DNA from: Granulicella sp.
Lineage (GTDB): Bacteria; Acidobacteriota; Terriglobia; Terriglobales; Acidobacteriaceae
Length of the DNA stretch: 64,000 bases
Assembly: GCA_027452215.1 (NCBI GenBank)
Contig: DAIDGQ010000023.1
Location: 780 to 64,779, forward strand
Reading direction: 5' to 3'
The translations under genes were made by a program, and so were the position numbers. Position 1 is the first letter of the stretch; the number at the start of each line of letters is the position of its first letter. Of the stretch, positions 5,506 to 64,000 are shown piece by piece. The notes below the pieces were generated by a model. It searched no databases, was not told the origin of the DNA, and saw only the letters and a list, made by a program, of their open reading frames with translations.

Positions 5506-6750
5506 ATGCCGAATAGACGCAAGGGCGCGATGGCGGGACGATGGGCGTTGCCGTTTCTGGGGATGGCGTGCGCGGTGGGAGTGGGATCGATTTATTACAA
5601 CCAGCCGCTGCTGCTGGTGATGGGGAAGACGTTTGGGCGGGATGCGCGGTCGATGGAACTGGTGGCGGTGGCGACGCAGCTGGGCTATGCGACGGGGATT
5701 CTTTGTTTTGTTCCGCTGGGGGATGTGGCGGAGCGGCGCGGGCTGATGATGCGGATGTATGGGGCGGTGTCGGTGGCGCTGCTGCTGGCGGCGTTGGCGC
5801 AGGGGCTGACGTGGATGATTGTGGCGAGTGTGCTGGTGGGGCTGATGGCGTCGGTGACGCATGTGGTGGTGCCGATGGCTCCGGATTTGGTGTCGCATGC
5901 GAAGCGGGGCAAGGCGATTGGGACGGTGATGACGGGGCTGCTGCTGGGGATCCTGCTGGCTCGTAGCTTTGCGGGATGGCTGGCGGGTTTTAGCGGCTGG
6001 CGGACGGTGTTTGTGGTGGCGGCGGTGTTGAACCTGGCGTTCGTTCCGATTATGTATCGAGCGATGCCGAGGATGGAGCCGAGGGATTCGCTGACGTATG
6101 GACAGGCGATGCGGTCGTTGTGGACGCTGCTGGTGTCGGAGCCTCTGCTGCGCGAGGCGGCGGTGCTGGGAGCGCTGAGCTTTGGGGCGTTCAACTGCTT
6201 CTGGACGACGCTGGCGTACCTGCTGGATTCGCACTATGGGATGGGGCCGGGTGTGGCGGGGACGTTTGGACTGGTGGGAGCGGCAGGGGCGTTGATTGCT
6301 CCGTTTGCGGGATGGCTGGCGGATAAGCGGGGGACGAGGTTTGTGGTGACGGTGGCGGGGGCGACGCTGACGGGGTCGTTTGTGTGGCTGTGGTGGACGG
6401 AGCGGTGGCATGTGTCGATGACGTGGCACATGGCGGCGCTGGTGGCGGGAGTGGTGATGCTGGACCTGGGACAGCAGATGATGCAGGTGGGGAATCAGAC
6501 TCGGATCTTCGGTCTGGGATCGCAGGTGCGGAGCCGGCTGAATACGATTTATATGACGATCTACTTTGCGGGCGGGGCGGCGGGGTCTGCGCTGGCGGGG
6601 TGGGCCTGGTGGCGGTGGGGATGGAATGGCGTGTGCATGCTGGCACTGGTGCTGATCAGCGCGATGGGGATTCGTCATGCGACGGGCTATAGCCGCTCGC
6701 ATGAAGAGGCTCGGGTGCATGTTCCGGCAGAGGAACGCGAGCCGGCGTAG
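5506..6750 (+). CDS. MFS transporter
   Basis: About 12 TM helices; YYNQPLL, PLGD..ERR, G.LAD++G motifs. Start may be ATG 5530. Confidence 0.9.
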   Translation: MPNRRKGAMAGRWALPFLGMACAVGVGSIYYNQPLLLVMGKTFGRDARSMELVAVATQLGYATGILCFVPLGDVAERRGLMMRMYGAVSVALLLAALAQGLTWMIVASVLVGLMASVTHVVVPMAPDLVSHAKRGKAIGTVMTGLLLGILLARSFAGWLAGFSGWRTVFVVAAVLNLAFVPIMYRAMPRMEPRDSLTYGQAMRSLWTLLVSEPLLREAAVLGALSFGAFNCFWTTLAYLLDSHYGMGPGVAGTFGLVGAAGALIAPFAGWLADKRGTRFVVTVAGATLTGSFVWLWWTERWHVSMTWHMAALVAGVVMLDLGQQMMQVGNQTRIFGLGSQVRSRLNTIYMTIYFAGGAAGSALAGWAWWRWGWNGVCMLALVLISAMGIRHATGYSRSHEEARVHVPAEEREPA

Positions 6751-58404: not shown

Positions 58405-60114
58405 ATGCGTAAGACTAAGTTGAATAGCGGCGGCTTCTTTGTAAACGACGAAGACCGGCAGATGCTGGTTCTAGGTTACCGGGGCACGCTGCAGCCGGAC
58501 CGTCATTCGTGCGGGGGTGAGAGCGAGGCAATTGCGAGTGACGGATCAGTTTGCGTGGGATCACCTCCGCAGATGGAGGGTCTGATTGCGCCGTTGCTCG
58601 TCGGAGCGCTGCATGGACTGGACCGTCGAGTGCCAAGTCGACATAGGGCTTTAGGCGGGGAGGCGATTTCTGTCGATGGCTTACTCGAACTGCTTCTGGA
58701 GCGACTACAAGGGATTTTGACGTTGCCAGTTGCAGCTTGCCTTGCACGAGGGGAGGCCTCGACGGCCGCGATAGAGCTCTCTCTTCGAGTTGAATTTCCG
58801 AGGCTTGCTCCGCTGTTGCAGCAAGCAGTTTCTGAGTGGGTGGCAGCAACGGCGACGTTTCACGAGCGGCTGCATCGGGACAGAACTCGGTTGGCGAGGT
58901 GGCTAGGTTTTGCAACCCTTCCCCCCGTGGAATCTGTGGCGGGGACTACCTCCGATACACATCCAGGTGGACATGGGGTGCTACGGGTTATTTTCAAAGG
59001 CGGCCGCAGCGTTTATTACAAGCCTCGCTCCATAAGCGGGGAGTGGCTCTGGCATCGGCTCTTGGAAATAATTGCCGAGATGGATCCAGCATTGCGTTTG
59101 CAAGCGGGAAGGGTGCTGGAGGGTAGCAGGCCGGATCGATATGGCTGGGCGGAATCTGTATTGGTGCGAGGACACGCAGATGGCCCCGCTGATGGGATTG
59201 GATACTGGCACGCTGCCGGTGCGATGTTGTGCCTGGCGCATCATGTCAGTCTGACGGACTTGCACCTTGGCAATGTGCTTGCTACAGCGAATGGTCCTGC
59301 CGTTACGGACGCAGAATGTCTTGGAGTGCCGCGCTTACACGATGTTTCTGGCCGCAGGCCTCCCCGCGAGAATGAGCCTGTCGCATGCTTCTTTGAGGCT
59401 CTGATGTGCACTGGGCTGCTTCTGGACCGAGGTGTTCGGGACGTGCCGGATGTATCGGGGCTGTTTGGATCTGGGGGACCGGTGTCGGACTTAGGGCTGC
59501 CGCAGTGGATTTTGGAGCCTGATGGACGTTGTCGCATGATGGTGGCACCGGCGGCACTTCTGGAGCATGGCAATGCCCCGAACAGGGTGTCTATGCTTGC
59601 GGTGTTGCCCGAGCTGTTGGCAGGATATCGTCACGCTGCAGGTGTACTGTTGCGCAGTCGGAAGGCGCTCATCTCAACGGGGTCTCGCTGGCGCTTCGTT
59701 CTCGAGAGGAATCATGCGCCCCGGATAGTGATTCGCGATACGTTCCGCTATAGCCTTTTGCTGAGTCGTTTCCTGGAGCCGAGGTATCTTCGCGCGGGAG
59801 GTGTGCGACAGAGCGATCTTCGCAGAGTTCTTGAATCGGATACCTCGGCGGCGTTTCCCAAAGCACTTTTGCGCGCAGAGGTGCATGCGCTGGAAAGGCT
59901 GCATATTCCGCGATTGATTGCATTGCCTGGCACTCGAACACTTGCAAGCGGGTCGGGGCGTGCCCTGGCCAGGAACTTTGCGGCCTGCACTCCGTCAGAG
60001 GAGGTCATTCGCCGAATGGAGGAGCTATCTGCGGAGTTGGTTGAGGCGGTCCATGTTCCAGCGCTTGTGTTGGCGATGCTCCGTTCGGGGGCTCGTTCGC
60101 AGCGAGATCACTGA
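58405..60114 (+). CDS. Stand-alone LanM-type dehydratase domain (DUF4135), no LanC cyclase domain
   Basis: SDTHPGG..V....F..G..VYYKPR, YGWAE.V, TDLHLGN, P.VTDAECL, RIVIRDT..Y; the protein stops at 569 aa. Confidence 0.85.
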   Translation: MRKTKLNSGGFFVNDEDRQMLVLGYRGTLQPDRHSCGGESEAIASDGSVCVGSPPQMEGLIAPLLVGALHGLDRRVPSRHRALGGEAISVDGLLELLLERLQGILTLPVAACLARGEASTAAIELSLRVEFPRLAPLLQQAVSEWVAATATFHERLHRDRTRLARWLGFATLPPVESVAGTTSDTHPGGHGVLRVIFKGGRSVYYKPRSISGEWLWHRLLEIIAEMDPALRLQAGRVLEGSRPDRYGWAESVLVRGHADGPADGIGYWHAAGAMLCLAHHVSLTDLHLGNVLATANGPAVTDAECLGVPRLHDVSGRRPPRENEPVACFFEALMCTGLLLDRGVRDVPDVSGLFGSGGPVSDLGLPQWILEPDGRCRMMVAPAALLEHGNAPNRVSMLAVLPELLAGYRHAAGVLLRSRKALISTGSRWRFVLERNHAPRIVIRDTFRYSLLLSRFLEPRYLRAGGVRQSDLRRVLESDTSAAFPKALLRAEVHALERLHIPRLIALPGTRTLASGSGRALARNFAACTPSEEVIRRMEELSAELVEAVHVPALVLAMLRSGARSQRDH

Positions 60115-60237
60115 GTCTGATTTTGCTCTTAACCATTTGCTTGTTGTGTGCGACTCTGGGTGCATGATAGGATGCAGCCACTCCTGTGGCGCATCTACAG
60201 GCTAATTACAACATTTCCAAGCATCGAAAGGAAGATT

Positions 60238-60441
60238 ATGACAAATCTTGAGCGTCTGCAGGGAGCTGGACTGATTGAAGTAAACCATCCTCTCACTACC
60301 GATGAAATCAGCAATATCAATCAATTGAGCTCTGCCGAAGTGGATGCGATTATTTCCGTACGCACTAAGCTTGGCGACGATTTCTTTACTCGTAAAGTAG
60401 AGGTTGGTGGATCCCATCGCATGGGGACGATGGTTTTTTGA
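60238..60441 (+). CDS. 67-aa peptide, candidate RiPP precursor or small partner protein
   Basis: RBS AAAGGAAG; MTNLERLQGAGLI...LSSAEVDAIISVRTKL...VEVGGSHRMGTMVF; no Cys. Confidence 0.8.
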   Translation: MTNLERLQGAGLIEVNHPLTTDEISNINQLSSAEVDAIISVRTKLGDDFFTRKVEVGGSHRMGTMVF

Positions 60442-60475: not shown

Positions 60476-61228
60476 GTGACTGCAATTCAGGATAAAACTG
60501 AAATGACTACACAAAGCCAACGGCTTCGTAATGTTCTATCGCTCGCACAAAAGGGTCTTACATCACGGATTCAGGAGGTGTGGTTCCATCCGAGGTTCGG
60601 AGAGTTATATCCAGAGTTCTTATTCGCGATGTATGGCGTAACTGTTGCATCGGCTCCTGCGATGCGTCTCGCGGCGCGTTGCTGTGCCGAAGCAGGGACC
60701 TCTGACCCCCTGAACGAGTGGCTGCAAGAGTATTATCTGGAGCACGCTTCTGAAGAGGATGATCATGCGGACTGGCTTCTCAGCGATCTGCGTTCCCTTG
60801 GCGTGGCACGGGAACGCGTCCTTGAGCGGCTGCCTTATCCGAGTATTGCAGCGCTGGTTGGTTCGCAGTATTACTGGATGCAGCATGTTCATCCGGTCGC
60901 CTATCTTGGCTTCATCGCGGTACTGGAGGCCCCTACGCATATAGAGTTTTTGCGGGAGGTGTCAGAGCGAAGCGGCATTCCTTTGGCTAGTATGTCCTGC
61001 CATGCGAGGCATGCAGAGCTTGATCTTGGACATGTGGCTGAGTTTGATGCGACTCTGGATGCACTCCCGCTGACCCCAAAGCATCGGGATCTGATCACGG
61101 TAAGCGCGATTACGACCATTGGTCACATGGAGCGAGTATTTGTGGATATACTGGAACACTTCGAGCGCATCCGCAACCCGGTAAACGCCACCACGATTTT
61201 TACCTCTGGCGATACCGTTCTCGTTTGA
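60476..61228 (+). CDS. Heme-oxygenase-like diiron oxidase (iron-containing redox enzyme family)
   Basis: RBS AAGGAG; EHASEEDDH, LG.IAVLE and HAELD.GH metal-ligand motifs; all-helical character. Confidence 0.85.
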   Translation: MTAIQDKTEMTTQSQRLRNVLSLAQKGLTSRIQEVWFHPRFGELYPEFLFAMYGVTVASAPAMRLAARCCAEAGTSDPLNEWLQEYYLEHASEEDDHADWLLSDLRSLGVARERVLERLPYPSIAALVGSQYYWMQHVHPVAYLGFIAVLEAPTHIEFLREVSERSGIPLASMSCHARHAELDLGHVAEFDATLDALPLTPKHRDLITVSAITTIGHMERVFVDILEHFERIRNPVNATTIFTSGDTVLV

Positions 61229-61253: not shown

Positions 61254-63668
61254 ATGTTGACCGCCATCCCAGGTAATCAGCTGCTTCACTATCGCCTGAT
61301 TCGAAAGATCGGCGAAGGCGGCATGGGTGTTGTCTTTGAGGCGGAGGATATCCGCTTGGGACGCACGGTGGCTATCAAGCTGTTACAGCCATCGATCTCA
61401 GAGAATCCGGAAGTGAGACAGCGCTTTCTGAGGGAGGCACGCGCGGCGTCGGCACTCGACCATCCAAACCTTTGCACGATCTATACAGTAGAGGAGATGT
61501 CGGACGGCTCACTTCTATTGGTGATGGCGTGCTATCGCGGTCAGACGCTGGCAGAGTTATTGCAAAAGGGCGGCGCATTGGATGCTGCGCGCATCCGGGA
61601 TGTTGGGCGGCAAACGGCTGCCGGGTTGCATGCGGCGCACATGTCAGGAATCGTCCATCGTGACATAAAGCCAGGGAACATATTCGTTCTCAATTCTGGC
61701 ACGGTAAAGATTCTTGATTTTGGTCTGTCGCGCGTGGCGGACCAGAGTCAGTTAACTGCGCCGCATCAAGTGATGGGTACGCTGGCCTATATGCCTCCAG
61801 AGCAACTTGCGGGGGATACGATCGACCATCGAGCGGATATATGGGCGCTGGGAGCGGTGCTTTACGAGATGGCGGCGGGGCATCCGCCATTTCAGCAGTC
61901 GACGACGGCGGCGATGATGGCAGCTATCACTGAGTGCCGTTACATCCCTTTGAACGATGTTCGACCGGATCTTCCGAAGTCTATCTTTTTAGCGGTTGAG
62001 CGAGCATTGCGTTTGGAGCGGCATGAGCGCCATTCTTCTGCGGCAGATCTGCTCAATTTACTGAATGAGGAGTTGGGCATAAATCCTGTAGAAGAGAATC
62101 AGTCAGCCAGACTGGCACCGACGGCGATGTTTGCCACTTCGGGATCAAGTGCGCATTCTGCTCCGACGGATATGGTAGTGCCGCGAGCCGGCAATAGCTC
62201 CAGGCTTTACGCAGGCCGAGAAGCGACGCCCCCCGGCACCGCGCAGCGCGGAGCCGGAATGTCTATCGCAGTGCTTCCATTGCGCAACATCAGTTCTGAT
62301 CCGGAGAACGAGTATTTCAGTGACGGGTTGACGGACGAATTGATCTCTTCATTGGGGACGCTGACTGGACTGCGAGTTGTGTCGCGTACATCGGCGTTTT
62401 CATTCAAGGGTACGACGCAGAATATTCGTGAGATCGGGGAGGCTCTCAACGTCGAGGTGATTCTTGAAGGCAGTGTGCGGCGCTCGGGAGCACGAGTCCG
62501 CGTCACTACTCAGCTTACGCAGGTGCGGCATGGCTTTCCTCTTTGGTCGGCGCGATTCGATAGAGAAATGTCCGACGTATTTGAGTTACAGGATGAGCTT
62601 GCATCGTCGGTGGTATCCGCCTTGCGGGATAAACTCGCAATGAACCTGGATGTCGCCGATCTGCAGATAAGGACGCCGATGCAGGCGGACGCGTATGAAG
62701 CCTACCTAAAAGGCCGCTATCACTGGAATCGAAGAAGTCCCGAAGATATTCAGCTTGCAGGTCGCTATTTTGAGCGGGCTTTGAAATTGGATCCGCAGTC
62801 CGCTGCGGCTCATGCAGGTATAGCTGATTTTTATTGTCTGCAGGGCACTTTTGGAGGGATGAATCCGCACGACGCGTGGGCGCTTGCGCGTTCTTCTGCG
62901 CGGCGAGCCGTTGCGCTCGATCCGGGGCTACCGGAAGGGCATCTGGCCCTCGCCTCCGTCTTCCATTTTTACGACTGGGATTGGGAGAAAGCCCGATATC
63001 ACATGGTGAAGGCCATCGAACTTCAGCCACAGCGTGGAGAGTCTTATTATCTCTATGCTGCGTATCTGATGACACAGGGCTTGCTGGAAGAAGCCCTTGA
63101 GCAGACGCATCGAGGGCTCGTTTGTGACCCACTTTCTACGCCGTTACTCGCTGAAGAGGCGCTAGTTCGAGCATACCTAGGGGATCACGACAGCAGCATT
63201 TTGCTGGCGCAGGCTGCACTCGCATCTGCGCCGCACTATGTTGAACTCTATTATGCCCTGGGCATTGCACAGAATCTTGCGGGCCGTCCGCATGAGGCGG
63301 TACAGACCTTCGAACGCGGTATCGAGCATAGTCATATGCCTATTTTTATGGGGTGGTTGGTGGAAGCGCATGTACAGAATGGTAATCCGGAAAAGGCTCA
63401 TACGGTGTTTGAGCAAATGTTGGAGCTTGCGAAAAGCGGGAATGCAATGCCGCTTCCACTTGCTATTGCCGCTGCGTCTCTCGGCGACGTTGAGCTTGCC
63501 TTTACATGGCTCGAGAAGGCAGTGGCGCAGCGGGATATCCTGGTCGCATATATTGCGGTGTTGCCCAGTGTAAGAAAGCTTCATGGCGAGCCGCGCTATC
63601 AAAGGTTGCTTGACCGAATGAACCTTCGACATCCTTCCACACAGCGGAGGCACCATGTTGCTCGGTAG
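61254..63668 (+). CDS. Ser/Thr protein kinase with TolB-N-like and TPR domains
   Basis: IGEGGMG.V, AIK, HRDIKPGN, DFGL, YMPPE; SIAVLPL.N.S.DPENEYFSDGLTDELI; TPR repeats. Confidence 0.95.
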   Translation: MLTAIPGNQLLHYRLIRKIGEGGMGVVFEAEDIRLGRTVAIKLLQPSISENPEVRQRFLREARAASALDHPNLCTIYTVEEMSDGSLLLVMACYRGQTLAELLQKGGALDAARIRDVGRQTAAGLHAAHMSGIVHRDIKPGNIFVLNSGTVKILDFGLSRVADQSQLTAPHQVMGTLAYMPPEQLAGDTIDHRADIWALGAVLYEMAAGHPPFQQSTTAAMMAAITECRYIPLNDVRPDLPKSIFLAVERALRLERHERHSSAADLLNLLNEELGINPVEENQSARLAPTAMFATSGSSAHSAPTDMVVPRAGNSSRLYAGREATPPGTAQRGAGMSIAVLPLRNISSDPENEYFSDGLTDELISSLGTLTGLRVVSRTSAFSFKGTTQNIREIGEALNVEVILEGSVRRSGARVRVTTQLTQVRHGFPLWSARFDREMSDVFELQDELASSVVSALRDKLAMNLDVADLQIRTPMQADAYEAYLKGRYHWNRRSPEDIQLAGRYFERALKLDPQSAAAHAGIADFYCLQGTFGGMNPHDAWALARSSARRAVALDPGLPEGHLALASVFHFYDWDWEKARYHMVKAIELQPQRGESYYLYAAYLMTQGLLEEALEQTHRGLVCDPLSTPLLAEEALVRAYLGDHDSSILLAQAALASAPHYVELYYALGIAQNLAGRPHEAVQTFERGIEHSHMPIFMGWLVEAHVQNGNPEKAHTVFEQMLELAKSGNAMPLPLAIAAASLGDVELAFTWLEKAVAQRDILVAYIAVLPSVRKLHGEPRYQRLLDRMNLRHPSTQRRHHVAR

Positions 63669-64000
63669 AGTAAGGTCCGTTTACGACGCGAGAACGCTCC
63701 AGCTGCAGAGCTATATTGCTTATGAGACTCTGCCTGTGCCACCCGCACACAATATGCAGGATGAGACAACCACATGGCCGATGCTCGCCAACAATATGTT
63801 TAATTGTTGTACGTCTGCGGCAGCTGGACATATGGTGCATCATTGGACGGCGGCAAATCAGCATGGCGTATTTCTCACGGACCAAGATATTATTCGAGCG
63901 CATGCCCAACTGACAGGGGACCATCTGATGAATTGCGTCTCAATGCTGGATGCGCTAAAGTTTTGGCGCAAGACCGGTATCGGCGATCACCGCATTCATT
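63655..64000 (+). CDS. Putative papain-like cysteine peptidase, 3' end runs off the window
   Basis: Not in the ORF track. RBS GGAGG at 63646-63650, ATG 63655, open to the window end: MLLGR....D.RTL.L..Y....LPVPP...WPMLANN..NCCTSAAAGH...LDALKFWRKTGIG. The family call is pattern recall. Confidence 0.6.
   Translation, partial: MLLGRVRSVYDARTLQLQSYIAYETLPVPPAHNMQDETTTWPMLANNMFNCCTSAAAGHMVHHWTAANQHGVFLTDQDIIRAHAQLTGDHLMNCVSMLDALKFWRKTGIGDHRIH

Follow-up and report, generated by a model that had tools for sequence, protein, structure and literature searches.

The gene at positions 60,238 to 60,441 of the window (the whole stretch of 64,000 nucleotides of Granulicella sp. DNA that was analysed) most probably codes for the peptide that serves as substrate for a peptide-modifying cassette, one that occurs sporadically in soil Acidobacteria. 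Its product of 67 amino acids is read here, with somewhat better than even confidence, as a precursor of the RiPP type, the C-terminal tail of which would be the modified part and Thr64 the target of a dehydratase. This reading follows from a single N-terminal domain being joined to diverse tails that co-vary with dedicated maturases, and from the homology of that domain to the leader of a validated precursor. The general features of RiPP precursors were also found, namely co-conserved neighbors belonging to maturase families and a conserved recognition region followed by a distinct core region.

The reading frame extends on the forward strand from the ATG at 60,238 to the TGA ending at 60,441 and is preceded by the Shine-Dalgarno sequence AAAGGAAG (60,227–60,234, forward strand), read from the sequence. 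The AAGGA of this site lies 5–6 nt upstream of the ATG and a GAAAGG core was kept in seven of nine homologous loci, in agreement with the good ribosome binding site described in an earlier note on this DNA. When 5.8 billion proteins were searched by a word index, homologs were found in 37 clusters with 70–93% identity, nearly all of exactly 67 amino acids, and the named ones were all from MAGs of Acidobacteriaceae. Two members (P0026 and P0039, 73–75% identical to the peptide) carry the NCBI name 'aroma-sacti cluster domain-containing protein'. When the DNA of the gene was compared with the nine homologous loci, codon changes that were synonymous only outnumbered non-synonymous ones, with differences at the first, second and third codon positions of 15/8/39 against L001 and 15/7/43 against L032. 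Given the homologs of the same length, the third-position bias and the conserved core of the ribosome binding site, the gene can be regarded as real and under purifying selection. That it should be an open frame that arose by chance and has no function, lying in the gap between two genuine genes, as might be suspected of a frame that is short, without a Pfam match and overlapped by opposite-strand open reading frames, is vanishingly improbable and was ruled out by the 37 same-length homologs, by the bias of substitutions toward third codon positions and by a ribosome binding site, start and stop that are kept in genomes in which the flanks differ. A candidate attenuator at window positions 60,414–60,433 (a hairpin with a T-run over the last codons of the peptide) was rejected, as it was absent from the nine homologous loci, and the number of terminator-like hairpin sites in the region was not above that of shuffled sequence.

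The peptide can be divided into a helical, leader-like N-domain of the aroma-sacti/StsA-leader superfamily (residues 1–55; 60,238–60,402, forward strand), assigned from AlphaFold2, NF045560 and a profile search; a variable linker V-G-G-S, which is a candidate processing region (residues 56–59; 60,403–60,414, forward strand), delimited by alignment of 38 sequences; and the tail H-R-M-G-T-[MLV]-[IVAL]-[LFIV], the proposed modified part, likewise delimited by alignment (residues 60–67 with the stop codon; 60,415–60,441, forward strand). Using a 120-sequence alignment, AlphaFold2 confidently predicted a small compact helical domain for residues 1–55, with helices at 3–9, 21–29, 32–45 and 47–51 and pLDDT values of 94–98 for residues 1–40 and of 89 for residues 41–50; the tail was predicted with less confidence (pLDDT 64–71). 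The segment LSSAEVDAI, which had been singled out beforehand, lies inside the predicted helix 32–45. A Foldseek search of the PDB with the peptide model gave nothing at E ≤ 0.001, a wide VIA-align search gave a best Z of 3.3 and no informative match, which does not imply a novel fold, and the ESM Atlas returned the peptide's own family only. No signal sequence was found in the peptide.

In the alignment of the 38 sequences, columns 55–59 varied and both flanks were conserved. Residues R61, M62, G63 and T64 of the tail were invariant, H60 occurred in 37 of the sequences (Q in the remaining one), and the motif recurred in nine genome loci on comparison of the DNA. Thr64 is the sole invariant hydroxyl residue of the tail. 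The peptide itself has no cysteine and only one was found among the 37 homologs, at position 59. The tail SHRMGTMVF, proposed in the earlier note as the modified core, is indeed present, but the particular residues to which that note had given weight were not conserved: its Gly-Gly, taken as a processing site, is G-D or G-N in 34 of the 37 homologs (mostly G-D), its Ser59 is replaced variously in a position occupied by S, T, G, A or C, and its terminal Phe belongs to a position that varies between L, F, I and V. The alignments thus showed a conserved N-region and, distinct from it, a motif at the C-terminus that is conserved as well, which was the outcome that had been named in advance as supporting a precursor. 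As for the outcomes named as speaking against one, the tail proved to be conserved and not variable, and the N-region was, in partial agreement with the other, predicted to be a stable small domain, with the pLDDT of 94–98 given above.

A profile search against 1.84 billion representatives (E ≤ 1e-3, clusters at 50% identity) placed the N-domain in a superfamily of at least 218 clusters, mostly from Acidobacteriota and almost all with proteins of 57–90 amino acids that match profile positions 1 to about 46–57 only. Profile matches to the long repeat proteins P0114, P0135 and P0152 were discarded as spurious, being caused by repeats of the 'LTQADVDA.ISV' type. The tails of the superfamily are short, with a median of 17 amino acids past helix 3, and 82% of 144 end in F, L, I, V, Y or M (F alone accounting for 49%). 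Tail groups found include ...NCFL, ...VGIVF, ...AGILF, ...PHPDS.SY, ...HGMAY, ...ITHHH and ...RPNFPV.

The NCBIfam family NF045560 (aroma-sacti cluster domain) matched the peptide at residues 3–47 (profile positions 2–44 of 52) with 23.6 bits and an E-value of 4.4e-5, under its cut-off of 30, and NF045559 (StsA-related sactipeptide) matched the leader region with 13.3 bits (E 0.087), under its cut-off of 75. For all eight superfamily members tested, NF045560 was the best family (21–37 bits). Member P0104 scored above the cut-off (37.1 bits) and also matched the StsA family (34 bits, E 3e-8) at profile positions 1–50 of 87, and the leader half of the StsA profile was matched by P0056, P0191 and P0053 as well. 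StsA (of StsABC, Streptomyces sparsogenes) is an experimentally validated sactipeptide precursor (PMC10288494). As remote members of the superfamily match the leader half of StsA, the N-domain is judged by sequence comparison to be homologous to a proven RiPP leader, although the peptide falls below both NCBIfam cut-offs. The resemblance to aroma-sacti proteins that the earlier note had proposed is in this way real, if below the threshold for the window peptide; the actinobacterial setting it had named was not recovered, as the loci here belong to Acidobacteriota.

The peptide gene is surrounded by genes for probable modifying and regulatory proteins. A gene at 58,405–60,114 (forward strand), the stop of which is 123 nt 5′ of the peptide gene, encodes a stand-alone LanM-type dehydratase domain protein of 569 amino acids with the DUF4135 domain (PF13575, 181.6 bits). 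It matches the LanM family TIGR03897 at profile positions 88–506 of 932 only, no LanC cyclase domain was found in it, and all 11 homologs are about 540–570 amino acids long. The protein aligns to LicM2 (6st5), and the K of YKPR, D-x-H-x-x-N, D-x-E and R-x5-T were kept in 11 of 11 stand-alone homologs; these are the phosphorylation and the elimination residues, both of which are thus intact.

Immediately downstream of the peptide, at 60,476–61,228 (forward strand), is the gene for a heme-oxygenase-like di-metal oxidase (HDO) of 250 amino acids, matching PF14518 'iron-containing redox enzyme' with 37.1 bits, above the cut-off. Iron-redox enzymes had been named in the earlier note as neighbors of aroma-sacti proteins, and a neighbor of this kind was confirmed both here and in nearly every related locus examined. 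HDO matches PDB entry 3dde at E 2.3e-7, and in 38 sequences, three of them remote, E93/E94-x2-H97, E151 and D183-x2-H186 were invariant and H179 nearly so, which is the canonical HDO ligand set of three histidines and three carboxylates. In a single prediction, the complex of HDO with two Fe and the peptide scored 0.59, compared to 0.50 for the control, a difference that speaks neither for nor against binding. The longest open reading frame of HDO starts with the GTG at 60,476; most homologs start at the equivalent of the ATG at 60,503 (Met10), which may be the true start.

Next are the genes for a Hanks Ser/Thr kinase and a protease. The kinase (61,254–63,668, forward strand; 804 amino acids) has a central domain and C-terminal TPR repeats (Pkinase 173 bits, several TPR families); HRD, DFG and PPE motifs are found in its sequence, in which no hydrophobic membrane segment was seen. 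The gene of the protease overlaps the kinase stop by 14 nt and its 5′ part occupies 63,655–64,000 of the window (forward strand), the whole gene (L006:6435–7199) encoding 254 amino acids. The model of this protein (pLDDT 83) and Foldseek point to a papain-fold cysteine protease, with Xylellain (3ois) as the top match (E 1.5e-7, TM 0.63) followed by cathepsins, and N46-x5-C52, which has the papain spacing, and H180 were invariant in 44 sequences. One homolog of the protease carries the name of Acidipila rosea. An FHA-GAF-SpoIIE(PP2C) gene was observed directly 3′ of the protease gene (L006:7273–8970, corresponding to 64,493–66,190 of the extended window). The genes were also considered as a defense system, but PADLOC recognized nothing apart from the generic kinase domain and gave no match for the remaining five proteins, and this reading was rejected.

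The conservation of the cassette was analysed by tblastn in 21 loci, some on contigs of metagenomes and others in genomes of GTDB. The genes for DUF4135, peptide, HDO, kinase-TPR and protease occur in the same order in 10 of 10 loci with the HRMGT tail, the protease being present in all nine that are long enough to show its gene. The cassette of the window is flanked by a cytochrome bc complex, an amidase and DUF2165, and other HRMGT loci by glycoside hydrolases. HDO adjoins the peptide in 21 of 21 compared loci, and also in L046, and is followed by kinase-TPR in every locus of sufficient length except L043, where the kinase was not found by tblastn. At L043 a 1095-amino acid protein with an N-terminal zinc-ribbon motif (L043:10243–13530, reverse strand) is encoded next to the peptide and HDO genes. 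Peptide, HDO and kinase-TPR are in this way a recurring core across the superfamily, and many superfamily loci consist of these three only, without the protease. A gene for an FHA-GAF-PP2C phosphatase adjoins five of the ten HRMGT cassettes in varying position and orientation; its recurrence in such differing arrangements suggests a functional link of the phosphatase with the Hanks kinase.

The maturases were found to differ with the tails. The family TIGR03975 'RiPP maturation radical SAM C-methyltransferase' (646–686 bits) accompanies the ...NCFL, ...PPRKPR and ...HGLLE tails. A DUF4135 protein also accompanies the ...PHPDSVSY tail, and this protein was found only with the two tail groups that have Ser/Thr near the end (HRMGT... 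and ...PHPDS.S.). A number of further genes were observed at single loci. At L046 a 105-amino acid protein (5990–6307, forward strand) matching the NHLP-leader family TIGR03793 with 40.9 bits (cut-off 50.9) is encoded directly 5′ of the DUF4135 gene, in a cluster that also has an S8 peptidase and a Trp-halogenase-like flavoprotein. At L047 (4905–13532) the peptide has the tail ...ILPPRKPR, and its neighbors include a flavoprotein, a GoxA/LodA-like CTQ-dependent oxidase and a TIGR03975 radical SAM methyltransferase; this locus has no HDO, and its kinase-TPR gene overlaps an ECF sigma factor gene.

Of 201 genomes from the same family 11 contained the cassette, as did seven of the 401 genomes of the phylum sample, and the search did not detect it in two congeneric genomes that are 99–100% complete. 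Such patchy spread is typical of accessory biosynthetic cassettes. No transporter or immunity gene was found in the cassette, nor an ABC transporter (C39 peptidase/exporter), and no gene for a radical SAM sactisynthase or an RRE was found in it or among the neighboring genes.

From these data a route of maturation can be proposed. Residues 1–55 would act as the folded, leader-like recognition domain that is common to the large superfamily, and residues 60–67 (H-R-M-G-T-x-x-hydrophobic, with a free C-terminus) would be the part that is chemically modified. The stand-alone DUF4135 enzyme may phosphorylate Thr64 and eliminate the phosphate to give dehydrobutyrine, from which no lanthionine would be expected to form, as there is neither a cysteine nor a cyclase. 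HDO, the enzyme common to the superfamily, would oxidize the tail using O2. Its chemistry is proposed to involve the C-terminal residue or one close to it, as in an oxidative decarboxylation or a desaturation, because the tails of the superfamily have in common only their shortness and a hydrophobic or aromatic end; UndA and MftC offer chemical precedent for such reactions. Cleavage of the variable linker by the papain-fold protease would then give a peptide of about 8–10 residues. Kinase-TPR, together with the FHA-GAF-PP2C phosphatase where present, probably regulates or senses the system and would not take the core as its substrate. A general core-modifying kinase is ruled out by the many tails that have no Ser/Thr, and the regulatory or sensing role is suggested by the overlap with the ECF sigma factor gene at L047 and by the pairing with FHA-PP2C here.

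A number of features speak against the precursor reading. The predicted stable fold of the N-domain would fit an intact small protein equally well, and some long RiPP leaders do fold stably. The lack of a transporter or immunity gene in the cassette and of a signal sequence in the peptide, the complete lack of a protease at many superfamily loci, the NCBIfam match below the cut-off, and the Lys/Ala-rich N-terminal extension that some members possess, which is unusual for a leader, also count against it. No HDO is known from biochemical work to take a peptide with a leader as its substrate.

When compared to known systems, the peptide shares with StsA and the aroma-sacti proteins a homologous N-domain of about 50 amino acids, and in both cases small proteins with a short, variable C-terminal part have maturases adjacent to them. 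The window peptide however has no cysteine and no CxCxC/Gly core, the cassette is without the radical SAM sactisynthase and RRE, and the partners here are instead HDO, kinase-TPR, DUF4135 and a papain-fold protease. With class II lanthipeptides (LanA/LanM) it shares an ATP-dependent dehydratase domain of the LanM type beside a small peptide with a conserved Thr. It differs from these in having no LanC/class III cyclase domain, no cysteine and no LanT-type C39 transporter, in the Gly-Gly not being conserved and in having a single conserved Ser/Thr target. In the dehydrazoles, dehydration by DUF4135 only is carried out by CcaM, which needs its cyclase-like domain (PMC10676384), whereas the dehydratase of the window is without any cyclase-like domain.

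An HO-like protein encoded with a ribosomal peptide is also found in the thiovarsolin cluster, where deletion of varO removes the desaturation of an Arg side chain (PMC6511847); this tie of VarO to a RiPP, which is a genetic one, is mentioned in a review of HDOs (PMC13108848). The tail of the window peptide has an invariant Arg, but the cassette here has neither YcaO/TfuA nor a precursor with repeats, and the role of VarO is known from genetics only. As most tails of the superfamily have no Arg, its desaturation cannot be the reaction that the superfamily shares. The NHLP/Nif11 leaders (TIGR03793/TIGR03798) similarly join one conserved leader-sized domain to short cores of many kinds and to maturases of several classes, TIGR03975 among them, and often have kinase- or cyclase-type regulator genes nearby (matches of the TIGR03903/TIGR04510 type). 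There is however no sequence match to these leaders, and the present superfamily has far shorter cores, C-terminal in every case, with HDO as the recurrent partner. The RRNPP systems (PapR/PlcR, Phr/Rap), in which a TPR receptor binds the C-terminal oligopeptide of a small precursor, are alike in logic only, in that the active part of a small precursor is a short stretch at its C-terminus and a TPR signaling protein is encoded nearby. They differ in that no signal peptide or export route is present here, modifying enzymes are, the organisms are Gram-negative Acidobacteria, and the candidate receptor is a Hanks kinase and not an HTH regulator or phosphatase.

The main alternative, which is possible although doubtful, is that the product stays uncleaved and serves a cytoplasmic signaling module as a small regulator or adaptor, the N-domain and tail of which dock on the TPR region of the kinase. 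The tail might then be modified in place by HDO and DUF4135 and the signal reset by the FHA-PP2C phosphatase, making the cassette an O2-, iron- or redox-responsive switch with no natural-product pathway. TPR domains do bind C-terminal peptides; the docking on this TPR region is however purely putative. Kinase-TPR is the companion of the peptide throughout the superfamily, even in the absence of HDO (L047) or of any other enzyme (L010, L038 and L040), as a partner of this type would, but the tails diverge sharply between subfamilies and the kinase architecture stays constant. The overlap of the kinase gene with the ECF sigma factor gene, the FHA-GAF-PP2C gene beside half of the HRMGT cassettes and a kinase without a visible hydrophobic membrane segment would suit cytoplasmic signaling, as would the absence of a transporter and the existence of minimal triads without a protease. 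These peptides nevertheless occur repeatedly beside RiPP maturases (the TIGR03975 radical SAM enzyme and the LanM-type dehydratase), and here beside a protease also. The confidently predicted fold of the N-domain and the Lys/Ala-rich extensions of some members agree with an adaptor, and the homology of the same domain to the leader of StsA, a proven RiPP precursor, argues for the precursor reading.

It is unlikely, in our estimation, that peptide, HDO and kinase-TPR together form a hitherto unrecognized type of intracellular signaling circuit in which the oxidase, dependent on O2 and iron, rewrites the free C-terminal tail, with DUF4135 in the HRMGT subfamily also acting on the tail and the protease releasing it, the TPR region of the kinase reading it and FHA-PP2C resetting the signal. 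If such a circuit were to exist, RiPP chemistry would serve as a sensor and there would be no secreted natural product.

Slighter still is the probability that the peptide serves as a scaffold or carrier similar to the pearlins (TglA) or LysW, the tail end of which is made into a small molecule. HDO and DUF4135 would then convert the C-terminal residues, and the protease, the presence of which in the cassette agrees with this, would cut these off and possibly regenerate the scaffold; most superfamily loci, however, are without a protease. A scaffold would show the layout seen here, in which the conserved N-domain is large and the tail very short and always at the C-terminus. The small-molecule substrates of HDOs also favor it, as the substrates of the characterized enzymes UndA, BesC and SznF are small, being amino acids or fatty acids. 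HDOs have been reviewed as makers of noncanonical amino acids (PMC13108848). Against a scaffold, no PEARL, ATP-grasp or RimK-like ligase for reloading was found among the genes of the window or in the compared loci, and the five contiguous invariant residues of the tail favor a peptide product or a recognition motif of more than one residue.

A literature search on aroma-sacti proteins, on PF14518/HO-like proteins with RiPPs and on RiPP mining in Acidobacteria did not find the peptide-HDO-kinase-TPR system or the five-gene cassette described. What is already known is the N-domain, which is catalogued in NCBIfam, the existence of stand-alone or unusual DUF4135 dehydratases, and the genetic tie of VarO to a RiPP. 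Should the precursor reading hold, the cassette would represent an unstudied branch of ribosomal peptide chemistry in which a heme-oxygenase-like di-iron oxidase is a recurrent maturase, for which VarO (by genetics) was the sole peptide precedent found, and in which a LanM dehydratase works without a cyclase on a substrate free of cysteine. A linkage of the peptide to a Hanks kinase-TPR is also seen throughout the superfamily. The clusters, of which there are at least 218, offer natural variants of the tail for working out the action of HDO, and they come mostly from a phylum with few characterized natural products.

Some members of the superfamily were observed to have an unusual organization. 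Three with the ...PNFPV tail (L039:9890–10219, reverse strand; L042:9697–10107, forward strand; L044:9768–10115, forward strand) possess a long Lys/Ala/Pro-rich N-terminal extension before the domain, of the AKKAPAKK type and similar to histone H1, and an N-terminal Lys/Ala/Pro-rich extension was also seen in P0103, P0123, P0143, P0172 and P0182. P0050 and P0092 (122 amino acids) contain two units of N-domain and tail fused head to tail in one open reading frame, and could be either true tandem precursors or the product of read-through of adjacent genes. In P0154 (321 amino acids) a superfamily peptide with the tail ...HASHGMVY shares one open reading frame with a flavoprotein-like N-terminal part; the start of this gene is probably mis-called, which points to a flavoenzyme encoded directly upstream of the peptide.
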